NCBI GenBank assembly: GCA_900753165.1
Contig: CAADYC010000089.1
Coordinates: 13,371-77,370, forward strand
Reading direction: 5' to 3'
Source of the DNA: Clostridia bacterium
GTDB lineage: Bacteria; Bacillota; Clostridia; TANB77; CAG-508
DNA: 64,000 nt
A model generated the notes under the pieces. The model was not told where the DNA came from. It saw nothing but the letters and a program-made list of their open reading frames with translations, and did not search any database. Made by a program: the position numbers and the translations under genes. Position 1 is the stretch's first letter. Each line of letters opens with the position of its first letter. This document shows positions 7,823 through 49,725 of the stretch, piece after piece.

Positions 7823-7898
7823 TTCAATCAAATATATAATAAAGATATTCTACTATTAGTATAACACTAATTTGTAGAGTTGTCAAAGGAGACTGAAA

Positions 7899-8180
7899 AT
7901 GAAATGTTATAGAAACATAACTACTGACGAGGTAGTTTATAAAGAAGAAGTAGAAGAATATGTACTAAGAAAGTTAGGATTAACAGTAACTCCACTTGGT
8001 AAAAATGGAGAAATGACACAATTACAACTTGAAAACATAGAAGAAACAATAAATTGGTTCTTTAGTGGGAATTGGACAGAAGAAGACATCTATGATGAAG
8101 ATGTTTCAGATTTAGAGTATGAGCTAGAACTAGCAGACAGAGAATATCAAGCAGGTTTAGATAGAAAATGGGGGGTATAA
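7899..8180 (+). CDS. Hypothetical acidic phage protein
   Basis: 93-aa ORF with a GGAG RBS. Confidence 0.45.
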   Translation: MKCYRNITTDEVVYKEEVEEYVLRKLGLTVTPLGKNGEMTQLQLENIEETINWFFSGNWTEEDIYDEDVSDLEYELELADREYQAGLDRKWGV

Positions 8181-8181
8181 A

Positions 8182-9755
<1,574 letters not shown>

Positions 9756-9767
9756 GAGGAAAAGAAA

Positions 9768-9998
9768 ATGAAAAAGATTATAGGAATTTTAATAGCAATT
9801 GTAGGAATTGTATTAGGAATATACGTGGGAATATGGTTAATGCTTGCAGGAGGAATAACGCAAATAGTTAATTCAGTAAATCCTGTAAATGGATTAGGAA
9901 TAGCATTTGGAATAGTAAGAATAATATTTTGTGGAATTGGAGGATTTATTGCTTGGTTAGGTGTAGTAATAGGTTCAGTAATTGGATTAAGTGATTAA
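9768..9998 (+). CDS. Small glycine-zipper membrane protein
   Basis: AGGAGG RBS. GxxxG-rich double TM. Confidence 0.5.
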   Translation: MKKIIGILIAIVGIVLGIYVGIWLMLAGGITQIVNSVNPVNGLGIAFGIVRIIFCGIGGFIAWLGVVIGSVIGLSD

Positions 9999-10065
9999 AA
10001 ATTAGACAACAGGGATAAGGCTAAAAATGTTTTATCCCTTATATTATACAAAAGGAGAAGACATT

Positions 10066-10630
10066 ATGAGTTATATAGATTTAATTAATGCCTTCGAGAA
10101 GTGGCTCGAAACAAATTATTTGCAAAGTTCGTCACAGTTATTGTGGTACAAGTTAATAGCATTATTCAATAAATGTCGGGTGGAGCGAATGGATTTCAGT
10201 AGATAACCATAGATTGATGAGTATTATGCAAATGAGTAGTGAAAAAACATTAATAAGATGTCGAGATAAATTAATAGAGAACAATTTATTCGAATATCAA
10301 AAAGGGACAAAGTCAAAACCTAACAGATACAAAATATGTACTGTAAATTTTGCAGTAAATAATAAATCTACTGTAAATAATACAGTAGATACGACAGTAA
10401 ATATGACAGTAGATGTGGGAGTAGATGTGTCCAACATAAATAGACTAGATAAAGATATTTATATTAATTTATTTAATAAATATAAAGCGGAAATCGAAAA
10501 ATGTCACGCTAATGAAAGAATAAGAATTATATCAGAATGCAAAAATTGTAACGAATATGCTTTATTAACACAAGAAGAACAAGAACAATTATTTATAGAT
10601 TTAATGAGTATAGATAAAAGATTTAAGTAG
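10066..10630 (+). CDS. Phage replisome organiser (DnaD-like N-terminal domain), interrupted at in-frame CGG 10177-10179
   Basis: LLWYKLIALFNKC then, in the +1 frame, GWSEWISVDNHRLMSIMQMSSEKTLIRCRDKLIENNLF matches the conserved N...GW...........LM...G.S..TL motif. Confidence 0.65.
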
Positions 10631-10646
10631 AGGAAGTGATAAAAAA

Positions 10647-10968
10647 ATGATTACAGCAGAAACAAGACAAATGAGTTTTAATGACATACAAGATAAAACA
10701 AAAATAAGATATATACAAATTTTAAATAGATTAGATAGACCTAAGACAGCTAAGGAATTGGCAGTAGAATTATTTGAATTAGGATTAACAAATACATCAG
10801 AAAGAAACACAACACGGGCCAAGACTAACAGAAATGGCAAAAATGGGATATGTAAAAGCAATAGGCAAAAAGAAATGTGAATATACAGGTAAAACAGTAG
10901 CAGTATATGAGAGGACACAAGCAGGATTTGAAACAATAAATTATCAACATATTCCAAGAATTGATTAG
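10647..10968 (+). CDS. Winged-helix transcriptional regulator, interrupted at in-frame CGG 10815-10817
   Basis: After a +1 step: ..NTTR PRLTEMAKMGYVKAIGKKKCEYTGKTVAVYERTQAGFE..., a coherent wHTH C-terminus. The zero frame ends in 10 junk codons. Confidence 0.55.
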
Positions 10969-10977
10969 GAGGCAATT

Positions 10978-11151
10978 ATGCAAGAAAAATGTAGTAAATG
11001 TGATAGTGAAAAACTATTTGTAGAAATAAAAGGAAATAGAAGAGGCTTGTATTGTTGCAAATGTGGAAAATGGCAAAAATGGATTACAAAGCAAGAATTA
11101 CAAATAGCAAAGTTTAAAGGATATAAAATTTTAGGAGGTAGTAATGGATAG
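10978..11151 (+). CDS. Zinc-ribbon microprotein (57 aa)
   Basis: CxxC...CxxC. RBS-like AGGAGG upstream. Confidence 0.35.
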   Translation: MQEKCSKCDSEKLFVEIKGNRRGLYCCKCGKWQKWITKQELQIAKFKGYKILGGSNG

Positions 11152-11323
11152 AGAGCAAATACTAGAAAGAATAAGAATAGAAATAGAAGCTTGTAAGAAA
11201 AATTCAATAGAACATATAGAAAAAGAAGAAATGGTGCCAGCAACAGAATATTTATTAACTATGAGAGATTTAAAAACTCAAGAATTAATATTAAAAAAGC
11301 AGGAACAACAAAATGAAGTATAA
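11144..11323 (+). CDS. Hypothetical 59-aa protein
   Basis: GGAGG RBS. Overlaps neighbouring genes as in a phage operon. Confidence 0.35.
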   Translation: MDREQILERIRIEIEACKKNSIEHIEKEEMVPATEYLLTMRDLKTQELILKKQEQQNEV

Positions 11324-11466
11324 TTATCCACCGTTAGAACGGCAAATGTGTAAAATGTAGAGGCTGTAACAGACTTGAATCAGAAAACTTTAAACGGAGT
11401 TTGGAGATGTGAAAATTACATAGAAAAGGAGCTAAAGAAAAGTGAACAAAATAGAAATACCATTTA
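11313..11466 (+). CDS. Cys-rich microprotein that needs two successive +1 steps, at CGG 11340-11342 and CGG 11395-11397
   Basis: With both steps the product reads MKYNYPPLE-GKCVKCRGCNRLESENFK-GVWRCENYIEKELKKSEQNRNTI, a CxxC..C..C zinc-finger-like product. Confidence 0.3.
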
Positions 11467-11798
11467 GGCTGCCATCGTTGAATCAATACATAAACGAATG
11501 CAGAAAAAATAGATATGCAGGAGCCAATATGAAGAAGAATGTTGAAAAAGATATTGGCTGGTATATAAACTTATTACCTGAATATAAAAATCCAATAAAA
11601 ATCCATTTCATATGGGTTGAAGAAAACAAAAGACGTGATTTAGACAATGTATGTTTTGCCAAAAAGTTCATATTAGATAGTATGGTAAAAGCAGGAAAGT
11701 TAAAAGATGACAATAGAAACTTTGTAAAAGGTTTTAGAGATGATTTTGAATATGGAAAATCAAGTAAAGTTATTTTAGAAATAGAAGAAATTAAATGA
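11442..11798 (+). CDS. rusA: RusA-family Holliday junction resolvase (GTG start)
   Basis: PSLNQY ... KRRDLDNV ... DD catalytic acidic motifs typical of RusA. Confidence 0.8.
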   Translation: MNKIEIPFRLPSLNQYINECRKNRYAGANMKKNVEKDIGWYINLLPEYKNPIKIHFIWVEENKRRDLDNVCFAKKFILDSMVKAGKLKDDNRNFVKGFRDDFEYGKSSKVILEIEEIK

Positions 11799-12106
11799 AA
11801 GGAAAAGAAATGCTACGAATAGATGATTATATAAGAACTGTAGACGGAAGAATCGGAAAATATTTAATTCATAACAATGCAGATTATATTGTTACAAATG
11901 ATAAGAGAATAGAAATTGATTCAAAAGATATAAAAAAGTATAGCGACAAACTAATTGATATAGTAGAAATGAATGACATAGTAAACGGAAAGAAAGTCAT
12001 AGCAATAATGAATAATACACAATTAGTTTTAGAAAATAATGAGAATGTTTATGAAGAAAATATAAAAACTATTTTAACAAAAGAAAATAAATATTATGAG
12101 AAATAA
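11795..12106 (+). CDS. Hypothetical phage protein
   Basis: ATGA-overlap with rusA. 103 aa. Confidence 0.5.
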   Translation: MKGKEMLRIDDYIRTVDGRIGKYLIHNNADYIVTNDKRIEIDSKDIKKYSDKLIDIVEMNDIVNGKKVIAIMNNTQLVLENNENVYEENIKTILTKENKYYEK

Positions 12107-12124
12107 AGTAGGAGGAGAGGAACA

Positions 12125-12688
12125 ATGTATGTAGATATATATAAAACAAATAAAAAATACAACATAATATATGCAGACCCACCATGGGAATACAAAGAAA
12201 GTGGTTCAGGAAAAAGAGTTGTTAAAGCACATTATCCAACAATGAATATTGAAGAAATAATGAAATTGCCAATAGCAAAAATATGTGAAGATACTTCTAT
12301 ATTATTTTTGTGGGTCACGTTTCCAAGACTTCAAGAAGGCTTGACACTTATAAAAGCCTGGGGATTCAGTTATTATGGACTTGGATTCGATTGGGTAAAA
12401 TTATCTAAAAATGGAAAACCAAGTTGGGGAATGGGATATTATACAAGACAGAATACAGAAATATGTTTGATTGGTGTTAAAGATAAAAATCACAGAATAA
12501 AACCACAAGTGAGAAATGTTTTATCAATAATACATAGTAAAAGAAGAGAACACAGCAGGAAACCAGATGAAGTGAGAGAAAACATAATAAAAATATGTGG
12601 TGATATACCAAGAATAGAATTATTTGCAAGACAAGAAACAGACGGTTGGGACTGTTGGGGAAATGAAGTAGGAGGAGAAGATGAATAG
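12125..12688 (+). CDS. MT-A70-family DNA N6-adenine methyltransferase
   Basis: DPPW catalytic motif (YADPPWEY) and C-terminal FARQETDGWDCWGNE. Confidence 0.8.
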   Translation: MYVDIYKTNKKYNIIYADPPWEYKESGSGKRVVKAHYPTMNIEEIMKLPIAKICEDTSILFLWVTFPRLQEGLTLIKAWGFSYYGLGFDWVKLSKNGKPSWGMGYYTRQNTEICLIGVKDKNHRIKPQVRNVLSIIHSKRREHSRKPDEVRENIIKICGDIPRIELFARQETDGWDCWGNEVGGEDE

Positions 12689-13068
12689 AGAGATAAAATT
12701 TAGAGGAAAATCAAAACGGAGGATGGCATTATGGGGATTTAATGACAATGAAACATTTTACAAACGAAGATATATATCAAATAGGAGATTTTGAAAAATC
12801 ATTGTGCTATAAAGTTGATAAAGACACATTAGGACAATACATAGGACTACACGATAAAAACGGAAAAGAAATATACGAGGGAGATATAGTTAAATACAGA
12901 GATAGCAGGGGACAACATATTGAAAAAGTAATATTTGATAAAGGTTGTTTTTATGCAGGAATGCACTGGGGAAGTTCAACAAGAGTAGCACCAAAACTAA
13001 TTAATACAAGAATAACAGAAGTAATTGGAAATATATACGATAATCCAGGATTATTAGGAGGAGAATAG
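12681..13068 (+). CDS. YopX-family protein, interrupted at in-frame CGG 12717-12719
   Basis: MNREIKFRGKSK in frame 0. The +1 frame gives GGWHYGDLMTMKHF..DKNGKEIYEGDIV..EVIGNIYDNP (YopX signature). Confidence 0.7.
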
Positions 13069-13070
13069 AT

Positions 13071-13322
13071 ATGATAGAAATAATTAAAAATATTTTATTT
13101 GGAGTAGCTCTAATAAGTGGAAGTATATGCACAATATTATTATTTTTAATTTTATTATATAGAGTAATACTTATCTTTATAGATAATATGAAAAATGCAA
13201 ATGTTTTTAGACAATGTTTGATGATTTATATTCACAGAAAAAGACCTGATATAAAAATAGAATTAGAAGATATTGATATACAAAAACAAGGAATACATTT
13301 GAATAAGAAAAATAAGGAGTAA
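13071..13322 (+). CDS. Small membrane protein
   Basis: One TM (ALISGSICTILLFLILLY). Confidence 0.45.
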   Translation: MIEIIKNILFGVALISGSICTILLFLILLYRVILIFIDNMKNANVFRQCLMIYIHRKRPDIKIELEDIDIQKQGIHLNKKNKE

Positions 13323-13329
13323 ATAAGAT

Positions 13330-13596
13330 ATGAGTTGCAAAGCTAAATTAAGACCAGATATAAAAGATAGAGGTAAACCAAGTGTAGAATTTGTTTTTGA
13401 AGGCAAGCCTAGATACTTTTGTTATGGATATATAGACCAAAGTACAGAGGAATTAATAGATGAGTGTAGAGAATGCCCAGAAAACGTTTACAGAGCAGAT
13501 GAAGTTATGCGAGATTTAAAAAAAGGAAAAAAAACTGTATATGAGGGTTTAAGAAATAGAACGTCTAAAATTTCCAAGGAGAGGAGTAATACATAG
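13330..13596 (+). CDS. Hypothetical phage protein
   Basis: 88-aa ORF in the operon. Confidence 0.45.
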   Translation: MSCKAKLRPDIKDRGKPSVEFVFEGKPRYFCYGYIDQSTEELIDECRECPENVYRADEVMRDLKKGKKTVYEGLRNRTSKISKERSNT

Positions 13597-13877
13597 TGAA
13601 AGAAAAAACAGTAGATAAAATTAAAATAGAAAATGAAAGAGATAAAAATTTATATATGCAAGGATATGAACAAGCATTAAAAGATATAAATTTAGATAAA
13701 TTTTTTCAAGAGGGATATATTTATGGAATCGAAGTTGAAAATAAGAATTGTATTAGAAATTTAGAAGAATTTATTTATGAATTAAAAGAAAAAAGGGAAA
13801 AAGGAAGTATTGTTATAGGCTATTGGCAAATAAAAAATATGATAGAGGAGATTATAAAACAATGCAAGATAAATTAG
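13596..13877 (+). CDS. Hypothetical phage protein
   Basis: 93-aa ORF with an ATGA-type overlap. Confidence 0.45.
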   Translation: MKEKTVDKIKIENERDKNLYMQGYEQALKDINLDKFFQEGYIYGIEVENKNCIRNLEEFIYELKEKREKGSIVIGYWQIKNMIEEIIKQCKIN

Positions 13878-14176
13878 ATAAAATAAAATTTTATGAGCAA
13901 TTAAAAAGATTTAATAATAAATATATACCAATTTTTATAATGATGCCAATTAATTCTAACAGTAAATATTCAATTATTTTAGATGAAAATAGAGTTGGAC
14001 AGAAAATAACTCATGATTATACTTTACAAATTTTTGATAGAACAAAATCAGGATATGAAAAGTATTTATGTAATGACATTGAATTTAACTTAATAAATGA
14101 AAATATAAAGACAGATTATCAATTATATAAATTTATATGTGAGAAAATAGGAGGTGTTTTAAGTGAAAGAAAATAG
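13862..14176 (+). CDS. Hypothetical phage protein
   Basis: ATG 13862 preferred over the upstream TTG. Confidence 0.4.
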   Translation: MQDKLDKIKFYEQLKRFNNKYIPIFIMMPINSNSKYSIILDENRVGQKITHDYTLQIFDRTKSGYEKYLCNDIEFNLINENIKTDYQLYKFICEKIGGVLSERK

Positions 14177-14390
14177 TATAGAAGATAGAGTTAATATATT
14201 AAAAATAGAATGTTATATTACAATAAATGATGAGAAAGAGCCAATCTTAAATATTGGTACAAGCTTTTCAAATATGATAGAAAGTGAAAAATTTAAGTAT
14301 TATAATGATGAGTTACATAAAAATATTAAACCAGTTTTAAACGATTTAAAACAAATGTTATTGACTACATTGGAAATGGAGGAAGAATGA
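14163..14390 (+). CDS. Hypothetical phage protein (GTG start)
   Basis: 75-aa ORF. Confidence 0.35.
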   Translation: MKENSIEDRVNILKIECYITINDEKEPILNIGTSFSNMIESEKFKYYNDELHKNIKPVLNDLKQMLLTTLEMEEE

Positions 14391-14866
14391 ACGAGGAAGA
14401 AAAGAATGCGATTGAAGAATTTAGAAAACAACTAAGATTAGCAATAAATATTGATGATGTTACAACTGCTATAAGAAATGACAATGCTCAAACAATATTA
14501 AATCTAATAGAAAAACTTCAAAAAGAGAATGAAGAGTTAAAAGAATATAAAAAAATTGCAGAATTAACAAAAATAAGTTGTTGCACTGCTCAAAATTGCG
14601 AAGCATTAAACAATTCAATTAAAAGTGAATTAGAAAATCAAAAATTAAAAGAGGAATTAAATGATATAAATCAAAAGTGGATTCAAAAAGTAAAAGACAA
14701 GATTGAAAAAGAAATAAAGTATCATGAAAAGAACATATTAGATATAGAGAATATAACTATGTTAAAGAGTAAAACAGCTAAAGAAGAAGCGAAAATTGAG
14801 TTCAATAAATATGTAATAGTAGTTTTAAAAAAGATGTTACAAGAACTACTAGAAGGGAGAAAATAA
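14387..14866 (+). CDS. Coiled-coil phage protein
   Basis: 159 aa. Charged repeats. Confidence 0.5.
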   Translation: MNEEEKNAIEEFRKQLRLAINIDDVTTAIRNDNAQTILNLIEKLQKENEELKEYKKIAELTKISCCTAQNCEALNNSIKSELENQKLKEELNDINQKWIQKVKDKIEKEIKYHEKNILDIENITMLKSKTAKEEAKIEFNKYVIVVLKKMLQELLEGRK

Positions 14867-17764: not shown

Positions 17765-17840
17765 TGCATCTTAGTTCAAATGGTAGAACACAACACTTTG
17801 AATGTTGAAGTTTCAAGTTCGAGTCTTGAAGGTGCATCCA
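17765..17840 (+). tRNA. tRNA-Gln (anticodon UUG), CCA encoded
   Basis: Hand-folded 76 nt: acceptor TGCATCT/AGGTGCA, D-stem GTTC/GAAC, anticodon stem CAACA/TGTTG with loop CTTTGAA, T-arm TCAAG-TTCGAGT-CTTGA. Confidence 0.8.
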
Positions 17841-17932: not shown

Positions 17933-18232
17933 AATGAATTTGTAAGTTGTATTAGTGATACAAAAAAGGCGAGGCGGAGTGAAGGTCCTGTATAGAAGTC
18001 AATTACCAGTACACATATACAGCTATCGGTCAGGTAAAAGAATATTGAGTTAGCTGCTCAATAAAACCCTTTGTGTCACTAATAGAGCTTATAAAGAAAA
18101 GAGGAAAAGATATGGAAATAAAAGTAAAAAACTTAAAAGATTTATCATTAAAAGAATTAAGTTGTATGAAAGTAAAAGATTTTAAATCAAAGGAATCAGC
18201 AGTTGATAGAACAACTACTGATTGTAATAAAA

Positions 18233-18430
18233 CTATTTCTTAGGAGTTATATCATAGTTTTGAGTAAGCCAATTGTGATATTTTTCTAAAATCATACAAG
18301 TAATTTTAGAAGAACTTTGCAATATGTATGGATATCCTCTGTCGTTTGCATTTTCCTCTGTAACAGGAATTTCAGCAAAAGACAAATCTTCTTTAGAAAT
18401 AGCATCTAAGAATTTTTTAAAATCTGGCAT
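18233..18430 (-). CDS. Hypothetical protein, the only minus-strand gene in the late region
   Basis: Strong RBS GGAGGTGA 7 nt upstream of ATG. 65 aa. Confidence 0.45.
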   Translation of the reverse strand: MPDFKKFLDAISKEDLSFAEIPVTEENANDRGYPYILQSSSKITCMILEKYHNWLTQNYDITPKK

Positions 18431-18523
18431 TATTAATCACCTCCAATCGAGATGATTATAACAAATTAAGAATAAAAATAATGTCGAAATATGTCAAAAA
18501 ATAAAATAAAAGGAGATGTACAT

Positions 18524-24805: not shown

Positions 24806-24828
24806 AAATAATTAAATAGTTAAATTAT

Positions 24829-24857
24829 AGAAGTTCAAAAATGGACTTCTATTTTTT
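24829..24857 (+). terminator. Rho-independent terminator after the tRNA-like element
   Basis: AGAAGTTC-aaaaat-GGACTTCT then ATTTTTT. Confidence 0.55.
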
Positions 24858-27354: not shown

Positions 27355-27807
27355 ATGAAAGTAGATTATATGGTTGCTTTTAGTGGAGTTCAAAAACAAG
27401 AGATATTAGATAAATTTGGAACTAATATAGGAGGCAGAACACAAAAAGTTATTGATAGTAGTTTTATGAGTAATGTAGATAAGTATATGCCACAAGATAG
27501 TAATCAAATGATAACTAATATGTATAGTTCAACAAAAGTCGGAAATGGCGAAATAAACATTAATACACCATATGCTCACTATGTACATGAAGGTGAATTG
27601 TATGTTGACCCTAAAACAAAAAAAGGTGCATTTTATGATCCTGTTAGTGGTAGGTATTGGAGTAGACCAGGAATAAAGAAAATTCCAAGTGGAAAAAAAT
27701 TAAATTACCATGGAGGTTCATTAAGAGGAGACCATTTTGTTGAAAGAATGCTAGCAGACCATTTTGAAGATATTGTAAATGCAGGTCAAAAGGAGATTGA
27801 TAAATAA
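27355..27807 (+). CDS. Head-tail joining / minor capsid protein
   Basis: 150 aa. Confidence 0.4.
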   Translation: MKVDYMVAFSGVQKQEILDKFGTNIGGRTQKVIDSSFMSNVDKYMPQDSNQMITNMYSSTKVGNGEININTPYAHYVHEGELYVDPKTKKGAFYDPVSGRYWSRPGIKKIPSGKKLNYHGGSLRGDHFVERMLADHFEDIVNAGQKEIDK

Positions 27808-28229
27808 TGGCAGAGGAAAAAGCAAAAATAGATAAAATAAGAGATTATATTGCAAAATGCCCATACTTAAAGGAGTTTGCAGAATTAAATGTTGAGTATT
27901 TACAAGACAAAGTAGAAACATATTCTATTAATGAAAACGCAGGATATAACCCTGTTTTAAACAAATTTAGAGTAGGAGCAGAAATGCAATTTTTATTTAC
28001 TTTTGATAGTAAATTATATTGGAACGAAGATATTCAGAATAATATAGATAATTCTAAATTCTTTGAAAATTTTAGAAGGTGGTTAGAAGAAAATAATGAA
28101 AAACATATATATCCTAACATAGACGGGGTATATGAAATTGGAGCAACTACAAATGGTTATATATTTGCAACAAATGCAAATGAAGCTATTTATAGAATAC
28201 AATGTTATTTAAATTATAGTAAATTTTAA
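27807..28229 (+). CDS. Tail completion protein
   Basis: 140 aa upstream of the major tail gene. Confidence 0.4.
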   Translation: MAEEKAKIDKIRDYIAKCPYLKEFAELNVEYLQDKVETYSINENAGYNPVLNKFRVGAEMQFLFTFDSKLYWNEDIQNNIDNSKFFENFRRWLEENNEKHIYPNIDGVYEIGATTNGYIFATNANEAIYRIQCYLNYSKF

Positions 28230-28244
28230 GGAGGAATAAGTAAA

Positions 28245-28742
28245 ATGTCTGTACTAACAAAAATAAATAGAGATGAATGGGTAGATTTTTTAAATGTTGC
28301 AGCAACACCTGAAAAACCAGAATGGGCTATCATTGGTGTTGGTATTACTGATAAATCTACTGATTATAATGCAGAAAAAACAGAAGAAAAGTGGATTATA
28401 AATAGAAATAAAAGTGTAACGATAGATAGTTATGGTCCATCTTCTGGGGTTGAACAAACTGCTTATAAAGGAGACAAAGTGTTTGAATTTGTTGATAATA
28501 TAAGATATAAAATGCTTACGGGAACAGATGCACAAACAACATTATTAGAAATTGATAAGTATAGTGTGACAGAAGAAGAAACAACACCAAAATATAGAGC
28601 TAGATTATGGACCGTATCAATAGAAATAAGCTCAAATGGAGGAGATACGGCAAAAATAAACTATAATATAGATTATAGTGGAGACCCAACTTTTGGAACA
28701 GTTACATTTGAAAAAGGTGTTCCTACATTTATAGCAGAATAA
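28245..28742 (+). CDS. Major tail protein
   Basis: 165 aa beta-rich protein before the chaperone and TMP block. Confidence 0.55.
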   Translation: MSVLTKINRDEWVDFLNVAATPEKPEWAIIGVGITDKSTDYNAEKTEEKWIINRNKSVTIDSYGPSSGVEQTAYKGDKVFEFVDNIRYKMLTGTDAQTTLLEIDKYSVTEEETTPKYRARLWTVSIEISSNGGDTAKINYNIDYSGDPTFGTVTFEKGVPTFIAE

Positions 28743-28750
28743 TTTTATCA

Positions 28751-28795
28751 TTCGACAAAATTCGACTTGAAAATACAACTAAAAGTGATATAATC
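28751..28795 (+). promoter_or_regulatory. Promoter (TTGAAA, 17-nt spacer, TGaTATAAT) overlapped by tandem Spo0A-box-like TTCGACA / TTCGACT 10 bp apart
   Basis: Hexamers and boxes read directly upstream of the moron gene. Confidence 0.5.
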
Positions 28796-28829
28796 TTTTT
28801 ATTATAAAAATAAAAGGAGGAATATCAAA

Positions 28830-29249
28830 ATGTCAATGAAAAATTGTAAAGAATGTGGTGCTGAAATAAGTAGTAGTGCTAAAGTATGCCCTAAATGTGG
28901 TAAAAAATTGAAACATACAGGAATAAGAGTTTTTATAGGAATAGCGATTATTTTTATAGGAATTTGTTGTGCAATTTCTACAACTCAAAACAATATAACT
29001 CCAACTGGAAGTAATATTGTTCACGAACAGGCAAAAGTTACATTAGAAAAATTTAATAAGATAGAAACAGGAATGACATACCAACAAGTAGTGGACATAA
29101 TTGGAGAAGAAGGAACAATTTCAACAGAAAGTTCATATGGAAGTCAAAATATGAAAGTTTACTATTGGTATGCAGCAAATAATATTGCAAATGCGACAGT
29201 ATCTTTTATGAATGGTAAAGTAACAGCAAAAAGCCAAGTTGGTTTATAA
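28830..29249 (+). CDS. Zinc-ribbon membrane protein (moron) inside the tail module
   Basis: CKECG..CPKCG zinc ribbon, one TM, extracytoplasmic domain. Own promoter and own terminator. Confidence 0.55.
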   Translation: MSMKNCKECGAEISSSAKVCPKCGKKLKHTGIRVFIGIAIIFIGICCAISTTQNNITPTGSNIVHEQAKVTLEKFNKIETGMTYQQVVDIIGEEGTISTESSYGSQNMKVYYWYAANNIANATVSFMNGKVTAKSQVGL

Positions 29250-29257
29250 TAATAGAT

Positions 29258-29293
29258 AAACACTTACTGAAAAAGTAGGTGTTTATTTTTTTA
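29258..29293 (+). terminator. Rho-independent terminator after the moron
   Basis: AAACACTTAC-tgaaaaa-GTAGGTGTTT followed by ATTTTTTTT. Confidence 0.6.
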
Positions 29294-29310
29294 TATTAGG
29301 AGAGTGAAAA

Positions 29311-29814
29311 ATGGATAATTATATTAAATTAAAAGAAAAAAAGGATGTATTTAAATTAGGAATTATAGATGAAAATGGAGATATTGTGAGAGATATCAAT
29401 GGAAATGAGGTTTGTTTAGAATTTGATTTAGCAGATATAAAGTTACCTTTAAGATATAATCAATGTGTGAATGATATAAAAAAAGCAAAGATTAACTTAA
29501 AAAATCAAATGGTAATTATAGATAAAAAGCAAGATAGACAAAGAAAAAACTGTTTAAGTATTAATGAGGAATTGAAAGCGAAAGCAATAGAAAAATTTTT
29601 TTATGATACTGAAAAAGCAATGGATTTATTTTTAGGAAAAGGTGGAACAAAAAAGTTCTTAAATGGAAGAAATCCATATTGGGAGATGTTTGATGATTTA
29701 TCTGAAGCAATAGAACCATATATGGACAAAATGAAACTTTCAGTAAATGACATGACAAATAGAATAAAAGAAAAATATAAAATAAAAGAAAGTGATATAT
29801 TAAGAAATGAATAA
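29311..29814 (+). CDS. Tail assembly chaperone (candidate)
   Basis: Position between the major tail and TMP genes. Confidence 0.4.
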   Translation: MDNYIKLKEKKDVFKLGIIDENGDIVRDINGNEVCLEFDLADIKLPLRYNQCVNDIKKAKINLKNQMVIIDKKQDRQRKNCLSINEELKAKAIEKFFYDTEKAMDLFLGKGGTKKFLNGRNPYWEMFDDLSEAIEPYMDKMKLSVNDMTNRIKEKYKIKESDILRNE

Positions 29815-30376
29815 ATATCCAAAATTTGCACAAGTAGAAGATAGAAAATATAAAATAAATACAAACTATAAAGTTGCATTATCTTGTAACAAAATAGCAA
29901 AAAGTAATGTGTCTGAAGAAGAAAGAGCACTTGCAATAATTTACTTGCTTTTTGGGGATAAAGGGTTAAACAATTCACAAGATTGGAATGATTTGTTGCA
30001 AATTGCTTTAAAATATCTTAATTGCAATAAAAAAAATGAAAATAATATAGAAAATAAAGAAGTTGATATGGATTATGAACAAGATTGGGAGTATATAAAG
30101 ACTTCTTTTTTTTATGACTATAAAATTAGATTAAATGAAAAAAGATATATGCATTGGTGGGAATTTTATAATTTATTATGTGGATTAAGTGACAAATGTA
30201 TTTTAAATAGAATTAGATTTGTTAGAAATTTTGATGTAAGTGAAATTAAAGATAGTAAAGAAAGAGAAAAGTGGATTAGACAAAAAGAAGAAGTTGCATT
30301 AAAACATGAAAACAATAAATCTTTAGAAGAAGAAAGACTAGATAAACTCTTCAAAGAACAAATGAAAGGAGAGTGA
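29807..30376 (+). CDS. Tail assembly chaperone-like / hypothetical
   Basis: Overlaps the previous gene, just before TMP. Confidence 0.35.
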   Translation: MNKYPKFAQVEDRKYKINTNYKVALSCNKIAKSNVSEEERALAIIYLLFGDKGLNNSQDWNDLLQIALKYLNCNKKNENNIENKEVDMDYEQDWEYIKTSFFYDYKIRLNEKRYMHWWEFYNLLCGLSDKCILNRIRFVRNFDVSEIKDSKEREKWIRQKEEVALKHENNKSLEEERLDKLFKEQMKGE

Positions 30377-30380
30377 TAAT

Positions 30381-32537
30381 TTGGATGGATATTTAAAAAT
30401 AAAAACAAAAATAGATAATTCGGGAGTAGATAAAGATATTTCAGAATTAGAAAATAAAATAAAAAAGTTACAGACAGACAATTCGAATAAGAGTCAAGAA
30501 GCAGATATTATGCAAAGAGAAATAGAGAATTATGAAAAAATGCAACAAAAAGCAGATGAATATAAATCAAAAATAAATATACTTAATAAAGAAAGACAAA
30601 ATATGTTTTCTGGAAATATTACTAAAAAATTGAGTAATGAGCAATTACCTGAATATGGAAGAATTACAACAGAGTTAGAAAGTGTAAGAAATAAATATAT
30701 TCAAACAACAAGTGAAATAGATAAACAACAACCTAAAATAGAAAAAATGTATATAAATCTAAGTAAAATAAAAGCAAAACAAAGCGAAAACAATACAAAA
30801 ATTGCTGAATACAAATCAAAAATAGATCAGATAAAAACAGATAGTATACAAAACTCTTTAAGTGGAATAGGAAATAAATTAACAGGGCAAATAAGCACAA
30901 TTGGAAAAATGGCAATGGCTGTGCTTGGGATAAGAACTGCCTGGGGAGCAGTAAGGAGTGCTATTAGTATGGTGTCTCAATATAATAAACAAGTTTCAAC
31001 TGATTTTGATTACATGAGATATTGTATAGCAAGTATGTTAGCTCCTGCTATTCAGGGACTAATAAAACTATTATATACTGTATTAAGCTATGTTAATGCG
31101 ATATCGAGTGCTTGGTTTGGAATAAATTTATTTGGTAATGCAAGTGTGAAAAATTTTAAAAAAATGCAAAGTAGTGCAGGAGGAACAGCAAAATCAGCAA
31201 AAGAAATTCAAAAATCTTTACAAGGATTTGATGAAATGAATGTTTTACAGGATAATTCAAACAAAGATAATTCTGGAAGTAATGGAGGAGTATCGTTACC
31301 AAGCATGGACTTGAGCGGAATACAGGGAGATGTACCAAAGTGGTTACAGTGGATAATAGATAACAAAGACATAGTAATAGCTGCTTTGGCAGGTATGTTA
31401 GCAGGATTATTAGCATTAAAGCTTGGGTTTACGGGAATAGAATCATTAGGAATTGGTATTATGGTGGCAGGAATTGTTCTACTAATAGAAAATATTATTA
31501 AACTTATAAAGGACCCAAGTTGGGAAAATTTTTCTAATGTATTACTTAGTTTATCACTTGTAGTAGCAGGATTAGCGCTTGCAATTGGTGGCACATTAGG
31601 AGTGACTTTGGCAGGTATAGCATCATTGATAGCAGGAGTAGCACTTATCATACAAGGAGTTGTAGCGTATCTAAAAGATCCAACATGGAAGAATTTTGGA
31701 ACAATTTTAGCAGGAATAGCGGTAGTTGTTGGAGCTGTATTACTATTAATTGGAGGGATACCAGCTTTAATAACTGGACTTATATTATTAATTGCTGCAA
31801 TAGGACTAGCTATTTATAAACATTGGGATGAAGTGAAAAATGTGTTAGGGCAAGTTGGACAATGGATATATGATAATGTAATAACTCCAATTGGAAACTT
31901 TATGAAAGCGCTTATTGACTCAATAATATCAAATTTTAAATTTTTATTTTCCATAGCTGAAGGGATTTTTACTGCATTGCTTGGAATTATAATTGCACCA
32001 TTTGAAACATTGTGGGATACCGTAAAAAATGTATTCAATGGAGTACAAACAATTCTTCAAGGAATATCAAATGTATTTAAAGGAATATTTACAGGTGATA
32101 TGAAAACAACGTTAGAAGGATTCAAACAAATATTTAAAGGAGTATTTGATTCTTTGTGGTCTATTGCTAAAGCACCATTAAATTTGATTATAAGAGGAAT
32201 AAATTGGTTGATAAAAGGAGCAAATAAAATACACTTTGATACTCCTGATTGGGTACCTGGTATTGGAGGAAAGACTTTTGGAATTAACATACCTCAAATA
32301 CCGCTATTAGCAAAAGGAGGAGTAATATCACAACCAACGCAAGCAATAATAGGAGAAGCAGGAAGGGAAGCAGTAGTCCCACTTGAAAATAATATGGAAT
32401 GGCTAGATATACTAGCTGACAAATTAGCGAACAAAATAGGTACATCAGGAACGAATAATATATATTTAGATGGAAGATTAATACAAAGACAAATTGCAAA
32501 ACATAAGGAACAATTAGCGTTTGCAACTAATAGATAA
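30381..32537 (+). CDS. Tail tape measure protein (TTG start)
   Basis: 718 aa. N-terminal coiled coil, central cluster of TM helices, C-terminal region. Canonical location. Confidence 0.8.
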   Translation: MDGYLKIKTKIDNSGVDKDISELENKIKKLQTDNSNKSQEADIMQREIENYEKMQQKADEYKSKINILNKERQNMFSGNITKKLSNEQLPEYGRITTELESVRNKYIQTTSEIDKQQPKIEKMYINLSKIKAKQSENNTKIAEYKSKIDQIKTDSIQNSLSGIGNKLTGQISTIGKMAMAVLGIRTAWGAVRSAISMVSQYNKQVSTDFDYMRYCIASMLAPAIQGLIKLLYTVLSYVNAISSAWFGINLFGNASVKNFKKMQSSAGGTAKSAKEIQKSLQGFDEMNVLQDNSNKDNSGSNGGVSLPSMDLSGIQGDVPKWLQWIIDNKDIVIAALAGMLAGLLALKLGFTGIESLGIGIMVAGIVLLIENIIKLIKDPSWENFSNVLLSLSLVVAGLALAIGGTLGVTLAGIASLIAGVALIIQGVVAYLKDPTWKNFGTILAGIAVVVGAVLLLIGGIPALITGLILLIAAIGLAIYKHWDEVKNVLGQVGQWIYDNVITPIGNFMKALIDSIISNFKFLFSIAEGIFTALLGIIIAPFETLWDTVKNVFNGVQTILQGISNVFKGIFTGDMKTTLEGFKQIFKGVFDSLWSIAKAPLNLIIRGINWLIKGANKIHFDTPDWVPGIGGKTFGINIPQIPLLAKGGVISQPTQAIIGEAGREAVVPLENNMEWLDILADKLANKIGTSGTNNIYLDGRLIQRQIAKHKEQLAFATNR

Positions 32538-41291: not shown

Positions 41292-41787
41292 GACAGATAG
41301 AAAAAGAAATGTTACAATTCTGTAACAGAAATATTACATTTATTTTAAATAATTGTAATATCTATTGACACAAATGAATAATAATATTATTATAATAAAA
41401 AAAGAAAGAGAGAACTATTTCTCTCTGTCTACCGTTTACCTAACTGAATTGGAGTTCTCCGCACGAACTTCAATTTTTTCTTTTGAGAAAGATAGGTATG
41501 TATTGTATCTTATTGTGGCACACAAAAACACAAAAAATCCAATTATAAATGCTATTAAAGCTCTACCGAGATATTTTATTGCTAAATCGTTGATGTTACT
41601 TTTTTCCAACTTTATCACTCCCTTCTTAGCAAAGTTTAAACTGCGGAACAGGTACAGTTTATCAACAGTTATGGAAGAAAACTGCCTTGCTATCAGCAGC
41701 ATAACTGCTGATTAATATACCTGTTGTTAGAGTGATATATAAACGATAGACACAATATATCAAAAAAAGAATATATTGTCAATAAAA

Positions 41788-41889
41788 TGTCGAAAATTCT
41801 GTGGATAATTTTGCAATGACTGTGGAAAAAATATTCGAAGCTGTGGATAACTTTGTAAAATAATGTAAAATCTTCGACACCGTTCGACA
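41788..41889. promoter_or_regulatory. Cluster: Spo0A box TGTCGAA (41788-41794); three DnaA-box-like 9-mers at exact 21-bp spacing (41800-41808 and 41842-41850 TGTGGATAA, 41821-41829 TGTGGAAAA); tandem Spo0A boxes TTCGACA (41873-41879, 41883-41889)
   Basis: Exact matches to the DnaA-box consensus TTATCCACA (reverse complement) and the 0A-box consensus TGNCGAA, read directly. Lies upstream of the TGTTATAAT -10 at 41908-41916. Confidence 0.5.
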
Positions 41890-41933
41890 CACATAATTAA
41901 CATAATATGTTATAATACAGATGAGGTGATGAT

Positions 41934-42113
41934 ATGAACGAAGCATATAACAAATCACTACAAATGATAAAATATTTAAAAATAAGATTAACAAGAAAGC
42001 AATATACAGAATTAGCAAAGAGATTCAATTTATTAAGTATACAGAGTTTACAATTTATATCAAAAAGAAGTTATGAAAGTATACTTACAGAAATACTGAA
42101 AGAAGTTGCATAA
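41934..42113 (+). CDS. Hypothetical 59-aa protein downstream of the DnaA/0A box cluster
   Basis: GAGGTGA RBS, ATG 41934, and a terminator at 42116-42144. Confidence 0.35.
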   Translation: MNEAYNKSLQMIKYLKIRLTRKQYTELAKRFNLLSIQSLQFISKRSYESILTEILKEVA

Positions 42114-42115
42114 TT

Positions 42116-42144
42116 TAAGTCCCGTTTGGGGCTTTTCTTTTTGT
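42116..42144 (+). terminator. Rho-independent terminator
   Basis: AAGTCCC-gttt-GGGGCTT followed by a T-run. Confidence 0.5.
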
Positions 42145-42487
42145 GTATAATTTTTTTGAGAATGTATATAATATAAACATGATTAATTATTATGAAAAAA
42201 GTAAAAAAGAATTTATAAAATATATAAAAAAGAATCCGTATGTGACAAGAGAAGAATGGGACGAATATGCTCATAAAAATTATTTATTCAGTGCATTTAC
42301 TTTGTGTTCTCATGAAATAACAGAAAATACATTAGAAATATTGCAAAAGCATAGTAAGAATGAGTTTGAATTTTTAAAAGAAATGTTTATAATAATTCCA
42401 GACAATCGTTTAATAATTTTGAAGAATAAAATAAAGAAAATTATTGGCTTAAAAAGAAAAAGCGAGGGAAAAGATGCAACAAGATAA
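42143..42487 (+). CDS. Hypothetical protein (start uncertain, possibly ATG 42179)
   Basis: 114-aa ORF. An extended -10 (TGTATATAAT) sits just upstream of 42179. Confidence 0.4.
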   Translation: MYNFFENVYNINMINYYEKSKKEFIKYIKKNPYVTREEWDEYAHKNYLFSAFTLCSHEITENTLEILQKHSKNEFEFLKEMFIIIPDNRLIILKNKIKKIIGLKRKSEGKDATR

Positions 42488-42848
42488 TGTAAAGAGAATA
42501 AAGAGTTTAAGAAATAAATTGCATAAAAGCATCAAAAAACACGGAGTAAATGCAGAAGAAACAAGAAAAATAAGCGATGAAATGGATAAGTTAATAAACG
42601 AATATTATAATAATATACAAAGAATAAGCTATCCTGCTGATAGCGAAATGAAAGTATATTATGAACAGTCATATAAGCAACTGAAAATCGTAACACAACA
42701 GTTAGAACGATTTCCGTCTACACAAGAGTGGAATAAATTTGCAAAAGAAAATTGTTTACTAAGTAGTATGTCTATGCAATATATTTCAAAACTGAACTGG
42801 AATTATTTAAGAGCTAAGGTTTTAAGAGAATTAAATATGGATATATAA
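42474..42848 (+). CDS. Spo0E-like (aspartyl-phosphate phosphatase family) protein with C-terminal extension
   Basis: N-terminal KRIKSLRNKLHKSIKKHGVNAEETRKISDEMDKLINEYY resembles the Spo0E family two-helix motif (..L...L.....G.....V...S..LD.LI.EY.). Confidence 0.5.
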   Translation: MQQDNVKRIKSLRNKLHKSIKKHGVNAEETRKISDEMDKLINEYYNNIQRISYPADSEMKVYYEQSYKQLKIVTQQLERFPSTQEWNKFAKENCLLSSMSMQYISKLNWNYLRAKVLRELNMDI

Positions 42849-42854
42849 AAAATA

Positions 42855-42890
42855 AAAAAATTTTTCCGCACAGTTATTGACTTTGCGGAC
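42855..42890 (+). terminator. Hairpin TCCGCA...TGCGGA plus T-run; TGTCGAA 0A-box-like 7-mer just downstream (42893-42899)
   Basis: Read directly. Confidence 0.4.
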
Positions 42891-43081
42891 TTTTTTGTCG
42901 AAAACGAGATTGGAAAACTTGACATTATTTTTCATTCATATAAAATAAGAAAGAAGAAGATAGTTGACGGCAATCTTTTATCTTCTTCTAACCACAAATT
43001 CATACTTAAAAATAAGTACATATACAGTATAACTTCTTAAGTATGAAATGTCAAATTTTTATATGAAAGAAGGTTTAAGCT

Positions 43082-43390: not shown

Positions 43391-43404
43391 AAAATTTCGG
43401 GATT

Positions 43405-43441
43405 GGGGGACGGGTCTCCAATCCCGAAAAATATATTAATT
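43405..43441. repeat. REP-like GC-rich palindromic element (TTTCGGGATTGG-GGGACGGGTCT-CCAATCCCGAAA)
   Basis: Perfect 12-bp arms. Family members at 44007-44042, 46533-46568, 46582-46614, 59949-59983 and 60183-60217. Confidence 0.7.
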
Positions 43442-43611: not shown

Positions 43612-43893
43612 ATGGAAAATCATGCACATCTTTTAATTAGATATGAAAAGATAGAAGATGTTTCAAATTGGATGCATGAAATAAATCAAACATTTGCACA
43701 AATCTATAATAAAGTAGAAAATAGAGTAGTGTATGTTTTTAGAGACAGATATAAATGTGAACAAATAAAAGATGAAAGCCATTTATATAATGTATTAGCA
43801 TATATACATTTTAATCCTTACAAAGCTAAATTAATTGAGAAATTAGCAGACTATAAATATTCATCATATGTAGATTATAACAAAGGAAAATAA
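43612..43893 (+). pseudogene. IS200/IS605-family (RAYT-like Y1) transposase, N-terminally truncated remnant
   Basis: NHAHLLI (HxH), ..SYV.. and the catalytic-Tyr region are present, but ~50 N-terminal residues are absent. Flanked by inverted REP-like elements. Confidence 0.55.
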
Positions 43894-44006: not shown

Positions 44007-44042
44007 TAAAATAAAAAATCGGGATTGAAGACCCGTCCCCAA
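44007..44042. repeat. REP-like element, inverted relative to 43405-43441
   Basis: ATCGGGATT-GAAGACCCGTCCCC-AAATCCCGA. Confidence 0.7.
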
Positions 44043-44054
44043 ATCCCGAAATTT

Positions 44055-46532: not shown

Positions 46533-46614
46533 AATCGGGATTAGGGGACGGGGCTTTAATCCCGATTTTTTAAAAACTTTTTTCGGGATTGAAGACCCGT
46601 CCCCTAATCCCGTT
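46533..46614. repeat. Two tandem REP-like elements in opposite orientations
   Basis: ATCGGGATTAGGGGACGGGGCTTTAATCCCGAT and TCGGGATTGAAGACCCGTCCCCTAATCCCG. Confidence 0.7.
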
Positions 46615-47772: not shown

Positions 47773-49725
47773 ATGAAAAAATTAAAGAAAAACGAAGCGA
47801 TAACACTAGTAGCCCTAGTAGTAACAATTATCATCTTGTTGATGCTTGCGGGAATAACAATATCAACAATAGGTGGAGAAAATGGACTATTTACAAGAGT
47901 GAAATTAGGAAAAGAAAGATATGCAATATCTGAAGCAAAAGAAAAGTTGGAATTGGAGATAACAAATTTGCAAATAGAACAGCAGGGAAAAGGAGAGGAA
48001 TTAAAAAAAGAAGATTTGCCAAAAATAAATAATGACGAAATAGATGTACGCGACACAACAAATTTTCCTGTAGAAGTAATATATAAAAACTACAAATTTG
48101 AAGTAGATAGTAATTTTCAGGTTACATATGTCGGTGAAGCAAATGGGACAATTATAACGTATACAACAGAACCAAATGGTTATACGAATCAAAACAAAGT
48201 AAAAGTTTTGGTAACAATAAGCAACCCTAAAGGAATAAAATCAATATTAAAACCTGGAGAAACAGACAAAATATTACCACAAGATAGAACAACAGCGGGA
48301 ATCGAATTTACAGTAACAAAAAATGGACATTATATTTTGAAAGTGGAAGATATTGATGGAAATGAAGTTTTTAAAGATATTTATATTGAGTTGATTGATA
48401 CACTAACTCCAGGTGAATTTACACCAGAAATTCAAAAGGCAGACAGTAGTATTACAGTAATTGAAAATGGAAAAGATGCAGAAGCAACAGAAGAAAGTTG
48501 TAAAAGTGGTATTGACCATTATGAATATTATTTAATAGATTCAAGTAATAAAGAAACAAAATATGAAACTAATAAGATAGAAAATCTAGCTTTAGGAAGT
48601 TATAAATTATATGTTGTAGCATTTGATAAAGCTGGGAATAATAAAAAATCTAGTATAATAGAGTTTAAATTATCAAGAAGATTTAAGATGGTTGAGACAG
48701 GTGGATTTCATACTTTAGCTATAGATACAGAAGGAAATTTATGGGCATGGGGGCAAAATCCTTATGGACAATTAGGAGATGGAACAACAGTAAATAGAAC
48801 AAATCCAGTGCAAATAAAATCGGAAATAAAATTTAAAGAAATATCAGTAGGGAGATCTCATAGTGTGGCGATAGATATAGAAGGAAATTTATGGACATGG
48901 GGAAGAAACGATTATGGACAATTAGGAGATGGAACAACAACAAATAGAACAAGTCCAGTACAAATAAAAGCAGGGACAAAGTTTATTAAAATATCTGCTG
49001 AGGATGATAGAAGCTTAGCAATAGATATAGAAGGAAATTTATGGGCTTGGGGAAATAATTACCGTGGACAATTAGGAGATGGAACAACAACAAATAGAAC
49101 AAGTCCAGTACAAATAAAAAGCAACACAAAATTTGCAAAAATATCTATTGGTGTTAAATATAGTGTGGCAATAGATATAGAAGGAAATTTATGGACGTGG
49201 GGGATTAATGATAAAGGACAATTAGGAAATGGAACAACAACAGATAAAATGACACCAATACAAATAAAAGATGATACGAAATTTTTAAAAATTTCGGCGG
49301 GAAGAGCTGGACATGTTTTAGCTATAGATGTTGAAGGAAATTTGTGGGCATGGGGGCAAAATCCTTATGGACAATTAGGAGATGGAACAACGACAAATAG
49401 AACTATACCAGAACAAGTGAAACCAGACATGAAATTTTCTGAAATATCAGCAGGAAATACGCATAGTATAGCAATAGATGATAAAGGAAATTTATGGGCT
49501 TGGGGAAATAATTACCGTGGACAATTAGGAGATGGAACAACAACAAATAGAACAACTCCAGTACAAATAAAAGCAGGTATAAAATTTACAAATGTATGTG
49601 CAAGAGGAAATGATTCTAGTTTTGCATTAGATAGTGGAAACTATTTATGGGCATGGGGGTATAATTATAATGGTCAACTAGGAGATGGAACAACAGTTAA
49701 TAAATTGGAACCAGTTGAAATCTAG
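47773..49725 (+). CDS. Secreted/anchored protein with N-terminal hydrophobic anchor, Ig-like middle region and eight RCC1 (ATS1) repeats
   Basis: N-terminus KKNEAITLVALVVTIIILLMLAGI. Repeats of IDIEGNLWAWG.N.YGQLGDGTT.NRT.PVQIK. Confidence 0.7.
   Translation: MKKLKKNEAITLVALVVTIIILLMLAGITISTIGGENGLFTRVKLGKERYAISEAKEKLELEITNLQIEQQGKGEELKKEDLPKINNDEIDVRDTTNFPVEVIYKNYKFEVDSNFQVTYVGEANGTIITYTTEPNGYTNQNKVKVLVTISNPKGIKSILKPGETDKILPQDRTTAGIEFTVTKNGHYILKVEDIDGNEVFKDIYIELIDTLTPGEFTPEIQKADSSITVIENGKDAEATEESCKSGIDHYEYYLIDSSNKETKYETNKIENLALGSYKLYVVAFDKAGNNKKSSIIEFKLSRRFKMVETGGFHTLAIDTEGNLWAWGQNPYGQLGDGTTVNRTNPVQIKSEIKFKEISVGRSHSVAIDIEGNLWTWGRNDYGQLGDGTTTNRTSPVQIKAGTKFIKISAEDDRSLAIDIEGNLWAWGNNYRGQLGDGTTTNRTSPVQIKSNTKFAKISIGVKYSVAIDIEGNLWTWGINDKGQLGNGTTTDKMTPIQIKDDTKFLKISAGRAGHVLAIDVEGNLWAWGQNPYGQLGDGTTTNRTIPEQVKPDMKFSEISAGNTHSIAIDDKGNLWAWGNNYRGQLGDGTTTNRTTPVQIKAGIKFTNVCARGNDSSFALDSGNYLWAWGYNYNGQLGDGTTVNKLEPVEI
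48700..49700 (+). repeat. Eight tandem ~150-bp coding repeats (RCC1 blades) with long near-identical DNA stretches
   Basis: ATAGATATAGAAGGAAATTTATGG..TGGGG and GGACAATTAGGAGATGGAACAACAACAAATAGAAC recur eight times. Confidence 0.7.

Follow-up and report, generated by a model that had tools for sequence, protein, structure and literature searches.

Introduction

In Bacillus subtilis, Spo0A is said to activate an extended -10 promoter (in the 2006 work of Chen et al.), and gp15 of the lambdoid phage HK97, a small membrane protein encoded in the tail region, is reportedly produced by the prophage and shuts out superinfecting phages (in that of Cumby et al., from 2012). In the lytic phages phi29 and Nf, Spo0A represses the early promoters and blocks late activation and replication, and the phage genome is trapped in the spore; the footprinted Spo0A sites of both phages consist of two boxes 3 bp apart (PMC2731898). 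Phage-encoded modulators of sporulation (Spo0E, Rap and AbrB) are reported to be common in gut phages and are linked to phage quorum-sensing receptors (bioRxiv 10.1101/2021.07.15.452460), and phages of Alphaproteobacteria carry sites for CtrA, the developmental master regulator of their hosts, in their promoters, with deferment of the lytic cycle (PMC9437464). The present analysis concerns a stretch of 64,000 nucleotides (the window; positions 13,371 to 77,370 of contig CAADYC010000089.1, assembly GCA_900753165.1) from an uncultured low-GC gut Clostridia bacterium. It holds the prophage of a temperate siphophage from an uncultured phage family, and within the tail module of this prophage lies the unit 28745-29293, a small membrane-protein gene preceded by tandem Spo0A (0A) boxes. 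We propose that this unit is a moron wired to the host's Spo0A and probably stimulated by its phosphorylated form (Spo0A~P), with a product that would act at the cell envelope, either in phage exclusion or by binding a wall enzyme.

Spore formation governs the persistence and the between-host passage of many gut Firmicutes, and what is known of the interplay of prophages with the sporulation decision comes largely from the Bacillus models.

Results

The unit 28745-29293 and its tandem 0A boxes

The unit comprises the following features:

28751-28757, + strand: distal 0A box TTCGACA (TGTCGAA on the other strand), at about -50 to -44, perfect core
28761-28767, + strand: proximal 0A box TTCGACT (AGTCGAA), at about -40 to -34, one mismatch at position 1
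28767-28772, + strand: -35 hexamer TTGAAA, 5/6 matches, spacer of 16 nt
28786-28794, + strand: extended -10 TGaTATAAT (TATAAT at 28789-28794), read from the sequence
28814-28820, + strand: ribosome-binding site AAGGAGG, 9 nt 5' of the ATG, likewise read from the sequence
28830-29249, + strand: gene for a bitopic membrane protein of 139 aa (open reading frame, Pfam and structural model)
29254-29295, + strand: intrinsic terminator, a stem-loop of 15 pairs (29254-29288) followed by a T-run

The two boxes are spaced 10 bp from start to start, with a 3-bp separation, and the second has one T in common with the -35 hexamer. The 0A core is TGTCGAA with G2, C4 and G5 as contact bases, and Spo0A of C. 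difficile recognises the same core (PMC3485338). The pair agrees well with this description, having a near-perfect core, a tandem arrangement with a 3-bp gap, and G2, C4 and G5 retained also in the proximal box, which stands 21 nt ahead of the -10. The promoter TTGAAA-16-TGaTATAAT matches at 11 of 12 positions and was the top-scoring of 64 promoter-like sites in a scan of 10 kb, and the terminator hairpin (-18 kcal/mol, z = -6.3) was equalled by none of 200 shuffles. The preliminary description of this locus had given the promoter a 17-nt spacer and had placed the terminator at 29258-29293. Both promoter hexamers, the strength of the terminator and the two heptamers 10 bp apart stand, the overlap with the -35 being a single base; the spacer measures 16 nt, and the terminator is to be placed as listed above.

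Three units of one design in the prophage

The 64-kb window contains three tandem pairs of TGTCGAA that are spaced 10 bp apart and have no more than one mismatch in total; 200 dinucleotide shuffles gave 0.015 such pairs on average. All three are intergenic and lie within the prophage, whose limits are a serine recombinase and a CI/LexA-like repressor (4.3-6.5 kb) on one side and about 43.4 kb on the other. The three units agree in the distance of 38 nt from the first base of box 1 to the start of the -10 hexamer. Single perfect heptamers, nine on both strands of the 64 kb, are by themselves not above chance, and the promoter-like sites of the 10-kb scan are not enriched (64 found, 63 expected from shuffled sequence); the statistical weight is carried by the tandem and spacing tests, and not by single-box or promoter-hexamer counts. 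The two further units are composed as follows:

18194-18498, - strand: second unit
18498-18492 and 18488-18482, - strand: boxes TTTGACA and TTCGACA, read as TTTGACAtatTTCGACA, followed by 21 nt
18460-18455, - strand: -10 hexamer of TGtTATAAT, followed by a ribosome-binding site
18430-18233, - strand: open reading frame (ORF) of 65 aa, no family match
18223-18194, - strand: terminator
41873-42895, + strand: third unit
41873-41889, + strand: perfect box pair TTCGACAccgTTCGACA, followed by 21 nt
41908-41916, + strand: extended -10 TGtTATAAT, no -35
41934-42113, + strand: ORF of 59 aa
42143-42487, + strand: ORF of 114 aa
42474-42848, + strand: ORF of 124 aa, Spo0E-like
about 42865-42895, + strand: terminator

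The second unit sits between the early and the packaging genes and is oriented opposite to its neighbours. Its site is conserved in two other loci (L102, L120), and a third (L206) has the strict pattern together with the same ORF. A reading of the 18482 site as an abrB-like roadblock before the late genes was dropped, the minus strand presenting the promoter design that drives ORF 18430-18233.

The third unit lies in the right arm, at the end of the prophage. The product of 42474-42848 matches the SpoOE-like family PF09388 in its N-terminal domain with 42 bits (cutoff 23), and its motif SDEMDKLINEY is similar to SQELDCLINEY, which we take to be the corresponding motif of B. subtilis Spo0E. Its tblastn search against phages gave no match. 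All three proteins of the unit (59, 114 and 124 aa) have the C-terminal motif EW..FAK.N.LLS in common. This Spo0E-like cassette recurs at the ends of unrelated prophages, with the homology starting exactly at box 1 and the DNA upstream of it unrelated. The lysogeny switch region of the prophage has no 0A boxes, and Pfam scans of the ten longer early ORFs (6647-14866), the integrase and the repressor yielded as DNA-binding candidates only the CI/LexA-like repressor and a DUF739/helix-turn-helix (HTH) protein.

Ahead of the third unit, at 41799-41850, stand three copies of CTGTGGA(T/A)AA with a spacing of exactly 21 bp (0/100 shuffles reach three copies). The TGTGGATAA within them is the complement of a DnaA box; a single TGTCGAA lies nearby at 41788. 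These repeats are not present in the other contexts of the cassette.

The promoter design in related phages and in IMG/VR

The distance from box 1 to the -10 is 38 nt (39 in L011-15) in more than 12 independent promoters. The carriers of this geometry are the three units of the window and loci L096/099/100, L011-15, L021, L041, L116/118/125, L025 and L007, and a small-gene unit in L116/118/125/127 has it as well. Where a promoter has a single box, it occupies the proximal position. In relatives with an 86%-identical protein, the 44-nt stretch from box 1 through the -10 is fully conserved and the 5' untranslated region (UTR) differs. A more distant phage (62% identity; L011-15, L181-183) carries the gene in the same slot, followed by a gene for a bPH_2 membrane protein; there the promoter combines three boxes, each 10 bp from the next, with TGcTATACT and has no -35.

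The pattern TTCGACAnnnTTCGACA-N(20,21)-TATAAT was found in at least 120 stretches of IMG/VR, compared with 7 for the control N(25,26) and 8 for N(15,16); several of the control hits fall in loci that also match N(20,21), and the counts include related contigs. Among the matches listed, 68 of the 74 distinct promoter strings have the 21-nt spacer and 56 have TGn, and in 73 of 74 strict strings the -35 matches at three or fewer of six positions. The TTGAAA of the unit 28745-29293 (5/6) is thus atypical for the class. The first ORFs downstream belong to at least 22 families, including a TM2 membrane protein, a double-CxxC protein, a bPH_3 protein, an XRE regulator and the first gene of the Spo0E-like cassette. 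A downstream protein of 51 aa with the motif SQKLD reaches 22.7 bits against the Spo0E cutoff of 23, a borderline second Spo0E-like family. The promoter design is shared by phages whose structural modules and integration sites are unrelated. Judged from its sequence, the class, with no -35, a fixed spacing of 21 nt and an extended -10, has the profile of an activator-dependent promoter.

A tandem pair was also seen outside phages, in a mobile element with FtsK/SpoIIIE and Mob_Pre genes (L007-L010, 2996-3012; TACGACAaggTTCGACA). It lies 38 nt before TGaTATGTT and ahead of a Big_2 surface-protein gene, and the adjoining BLIP-repeat gene is boxless.

The host Spo0A

A tblastn search with B. subtilis Spo0A located the gene for the presumed trans-acting factor in the window itself, at a distance of about 19 kb from the prophage:

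62433-63251, + strand: host spo0A, full-length equivalog of TIGR02875 with 380.7 bits (cutoff 200)

The product is 52% identical to B. subtilis Spo0A over its full length, and its recognition helix has the same sequence as in the B. subtilis protein and in PDB 1LQ1, a Spo0A-DNA complex; the C-terminal domain matches 1LQ1/1FC3 with E 7e-51. Since the recognition helix is identical, Spo0A control can be tested with existing proteins and strains, and culture of the host is not needed.

A further host gene at 53994-54605 (- strand) resembles the sporulation membrane protein YtaF, with 122 bits, under the cutoff of 149.6.

The tail slot and its cargo

The unit lies between the tail tube gene, whose stop is at 28742, and the tail chaperone gene. 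The neighbouring genes are:

27807-28229: tail-completion protein gene
28245-28742: tail tube protein gene, matching a solved phage tail tube protein (E 4e-5)
29807-30376: Phage_Gp15 (Pfam) gene, on the chaperone side of the slot
30381-32537: tape measure protein gene

These matches agree with the tail-module neighbours that the preliminary description had proposed for gene 28830-29249. Its view of a self-contained moron likewise agrees with the separate promoter and terminator and with the variation of the slot cargo between related phages. All 15 viral loci that are related by their tail tube protein have a filled slot, and in each the cargo is a bitopic membrane protein; in five other related loci examined (L017, L024, L030, L035, L041) it also carries cargo. 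There are at least seven types of cargo, from 570 to 3400 nt, with the flanking genes retained: a zinc ribbon with a transmembrane (TM) helix and BLIP repeat, a zinc ribbon with TM and an FxLYD-like domain, an FxLYD-like form without the ribbon, a DUF4190 type, TM with coiled coil, and a zinc ribbon with TM2. In locus L190 the slot protein combines a zinc ribbon, TM and PASTA with two Ltp domains (E 1.5e-42), Ltp being the prototype of the surface-exposed superinfection-exclusion lipoproteins (PMC3952083). Most slot promoters have 0A boxes; L192 has none, and in L184/185 and L193 the boxes are reversed in orientation and lie further upstream. A megablast search of 27800-30400 against the phage collection gave no match.

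The slot cargo of L017 (6660-7000) is related to 41365-41715 of the window, just 5' of the right-arm cassette. This kinship suggests that cargo may move between the tail slot and the right-arm accessory site.

The protein of gene 28830-29249

The ORF has the CxxC...CxxC motif, the single TM helix and the extracytoplasmic domain that had been read from its translation. The 139-aa protein is laid out as a zinc ribbon (1-27), a TM helix (30-48), a linker and a single BLIP-type repeat (66-139). Both Pfam assignments exceed their gathering cutoffs, that of the zinc ribbon at residues 2-27 and that of DUF3862/BLIP at 66-139 (36.0 bits for DUF3862, cutoff 25; 28.7 bits for BLIP, cutoff 26.7), and the C-terminal part matches PHROG 6148 ('BLIP', moron category) with E 6.7e-15. 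The profile search against BLIP in PDB gave E 2e-9, with alignment to either half of BLIP. The AlphaFold model, built from 24 homologues, shows a small ribbon, the helix 30-48, a disordered linker (51-65) and a confident C-terminal domain, with a predicted local distance difference test (pLDDT) score above 90 over residues 70-139 and a fold of one helix and a four-stranded sheet. Foldseek superposes this domain on one BLIP repeat at a root-mean-square deviation of 1.6-2.1 A over about 82 columns; BamE is a weaker match. The ectodomain is a protein-binding module of BLIP type, but it consists of a single repeat, and BLIP itself uses two for its beta-lactamase-binding face. As the N-terminal 32 residues have 7 K/R and 2 D/E, the zinc ribbon should be inside the cell and the BLIP-type repeat outside.

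The Lipoprotein_Ltp domain (PF07553) was absent from the protein in the Pfam search. Overall, gene 28830-29249 has more than 250 homologues; its tblastn search against phages returned only two weak, half-length matches, and the closest genomes with relatives are metagenome-assembled genomes and Clostridium sp. CAG:452.

Other features of the window

Inside the prophage, a tRNA-Gln (UUG) gene at 17765-17840 is followed, up to 18230, by about 400 nt that are apparently non-coding and relatively GC-rich. A further strong intrinsic terminator (-14.3 kcal/mol, z = -6.9) lies in the late region before the scaffold gene, at 24827-24852, and late transcription past it may need read-through or antitermination.

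In the host part, REP-like palindromes (repetitive extragenic palindromes; TCGGGATTG...CAATCCCGA) at 43397-43426, 44019-44048 and 46535-46612 flank host genes, and the short ORF 43612-43893 between them resembles a fragment of a REP-associated/IS200-type tyrosine transposase. A host ORF of 650 aa at 47773-49725 contains seven or eight tandem repeats of 150 nt (GQLGDGTT motif, RCC1-like).

Discussion

Proposed control of the unit by Spo0A

According to the mechanism we propose, a dimer of Spo0A~P would occupy the two 0A boxes, centred near -42, a position where activators contact RNA polymerase. From there the bound protein would contact polymerase at the extended -10 promoter, and transcription would increase as Spo0A~P accumulates, that is, at the stationary-phase transition or the onset of the presumed sporulation of the host. 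Promoters of the class would need Spo0A~P because they miss the -35. At the promoter 28767-28794, Spo0A would rather provide a boost over a basal level, since its fair -35, TTGAAA, makes some basal expression of gene 28830-29249 in the lysogen likely. At the surface, the ectodomain would bind an envelope protein, most likely blocking superinfecting phages, the alternative partner being a penicillin-binding or wall-remodelling enzyme; exclusion is the first choice because of the slot context, and wall-enzyme binding the second because of the BLIP relatives. The function in exclusion or conversion named in the preliminary description is still a guess, though one with some support by analogy with L190, where the same kind of zinc-ribbon/TM anchor displays Ltp domains. 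Moreover, the Spo0E-like phosphatase of the third unit would feed back on Spo0A~P, and its place behind a 0A-box promoter suggests that the prophage may damp Spo0A~P once it has been raised.

The control by Spo0A, earlier suggested from the box pair at 28751/28761, now finds support in the same geometry at two further units of the prophage, one with a Spo0E-like gene, in many independent phage promoters, in the spacing preference within IMG/VR and in a host spo0A with an unchanged recognition helix. That the regulator would be a host factor rather than a phage factor is argued by the cassette, which keeps its boxes in unrelated prophages, by the non-phage pair and by the host spo0A itself.

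Several observations weigh against this reading. With TTGAAA 16 nt from the -10, the promoter may fire without Spo0A, and polymerase could be obstructed rather than helped by a protein sitting at -40 to -34. In the 10-kb scan no terminator was found to part the unit from the tail tube gene ahead of it, and gene 28830-29249 must therefore be carried on late read-through transcripts too. The GC content of the gene (0.30) is close to that of the flanking late genes (0.28 and 0.29), and its composition is therefore not distinctive. In L007-10 and L016, where the gene stands outside phages, its promoter is of the ordinary kind and boxless, and the function of the gene is thus not tied to Spo0A as such. 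As to the product, a single BLIP repeat gives no hint of the partner protein, and no PADLOC defence model matches any of the five proteins that the three units encode, the 139-aa protein among them.

A wider generalization, which we hold to be evenly balanced, is that temperate phages of gut Clostridia use a portable module (0A boxes at about -50/-40 plus an extended -10) that would put an accessory set under positive Spo0A control and thereby sense and counter sporulation. The set would comprise surface proteins, membrane proteins of the TM2 and zinc-ribbon types and Spo0E-like phosphatases, with the BLIP-repeat protein as a new envelope factor that either excludes phages or modifies sporulation and is turned on when the host decides to sporulate.

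Alternative explanations

BLIP-I of Streptomyces exfoliatus reportedly affects morphological differentiation, and a possible, if clearly less probable, alternative to exclusion keeps the same regulation and lets the BLIP-type ectodomain bind a host enzyme of the penicillin-binding/beta-lactamase fold, altering wall remodelling or sporulation. Among solved structures the ectodomain is most closely related to BLIP and BLIP-I in complex with beta-lactamases, and the co-regulation with a Spo0E-like sporulation modulator would suit such a role, whereas the single repeat, where BLIP has two, and the Ltp exclusion domains among the other slot cargo point away from it.

It seems unlikely that Spo0A represses the unit, the promoter being constitutive in lysogens and shut off by Spo0A~P beside or over the -35 once the cell commits to sporulation. 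The promoter is indeed the best in 10 kb, box 2 does reach into its -35 by one base, and repression of phage promoters by Spo0A is established for phi29 and Nf (PMC2731898). However, this gene family is preceded in L011-15 and L181-183 by three boxes and lacks a -35 there, and the profile of the class fits contact-dependent activation rather than occlusion.

More improbable still is that the boxes serve another regulator, of the phage or the host, their likeness to 0A boxes being coincidental. Nearly all box-bearing promoters were found in phage DNA and the non-phage copies of the gene miss the boxes, as this would predict, but the core, the conserved G/C positions and the 3-bp separation are those of Spo0A sites. 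Besides, the design is common to phages that are unrelated in their structural modules and integration sites, a pair also occurs in a non-phage element, Spo0E-like genes stand downstream of such promoters, the Pfam scans of the ten longer early ORFs, the integrase and the repressor offer only the CI/LexA-like repressor and the DUF739/HTH protein as DNA-binding candidates, and the switch region is boxless.

Least credible is a late structural-module gene expressed by read-through, with a lytic role at the membrane in lysis or assembly and a promoter and boxes of little effect: the missing terminator ahead of the unit, the chance frequency of promoter-like hexamers in AT-rich DNA and the occupation of the slot in every relative would allow it, but relatives exchange the cargo and keep the flanking genes, the promoter core is constant in phages that differ in the 5' UTR, a strong terminator follows the gene, and the same design heads an oppositely oriented unit and a unit at the prophage end.

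Comparison with known systems

Phage 0A boxes, phage-borne spo0E, tail-module morons, Spo0A activation of extended -10 promoters and the co-option of master regulators by phages are all already known. Spo0A-box promoters on prophage accessory genes were not reported in the literature searched, and we rate them as new on this account, the sequence-level support being strong. If the proposal is true, the signature of two 0A boxes, 21 nt and an extended -10 would find phage genes induced near sporulation, Spo0A would be linked by direct feedback to a phage Spo0E-like phosphatase, and a set of small surface and membrane proteins could be tested for phage exclusion or effects on sporulation.

Like phi29 and Nf, the phage of the window carries sites for the host Spo0A in its own genome, as box pairs 3 bp apart at promoters (PMC2731898). 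In contrast to these phages, its sites take a fixed, activator-like position before accessory genes of a temperate gut-Clostridia phage, and its switch is boxless. By general description, the Spo0A-activated sigma-A promoters of B. subtilis (the spoIIG type) are similar, with boxes just upstream of or over the -35 and an extended -10. Most members of the class described here likewise have no usable -35, and the promoter at 28767 differs in having a -35 that matches at 5/6 positions. With the CtrA phages, the window phage shares the use of sites for a host master regulator, although the regulator, the hosts and the purpose differ.

The ectodomain has the same fold and Pfam families as the BLIP/DUF3862 proteins (PDB 1JTG, 3GMU, 3D4E), which however have two repeats, while the 139-aa protein has one and is anchored by a TM helix that follows a zinc ribbon. 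A gene annotated as 'BLIP' is carried by Clostridium phage HM T (KU517658.1) as end-of-genome cargo after the lysin; its product is about 40% identical to the 139-aa protein over half of the latter, and no clear tandem boxes were seen upstream of the gene. Ltp of the Streptococcus thermophilus phage TP-J34 is a surface-exposed prophage protein (PMC3952083), and in L190 the slot protein displays two Ltp domains on a similar zinc-ribbon/TM anchor. It differs from the 139-aa protein in its lipid anchor in place of a TM helix, in having Ltp domains in place of a BLIP repeat, and in its location beside the integrase instead of in the tail module.

As a moron, HK97 gp15 resembles gene 28830-29249 in having its own promoter and terminator within the tail cluster of a temperate phage and in encoding a membrane protein; there is no sequence relationship, the host lineage is another one, and wiring to a host regulator is not known for gp15. 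Finally, the phage Spo0E described earlier (bioRxiv 10.1101/2021.07.15.452460) is, like the gene of the third unit, predicted to lower Spo0A~P, and the latter differs in standing behind a 0A-box promoter, which would make a direct feedback loop.

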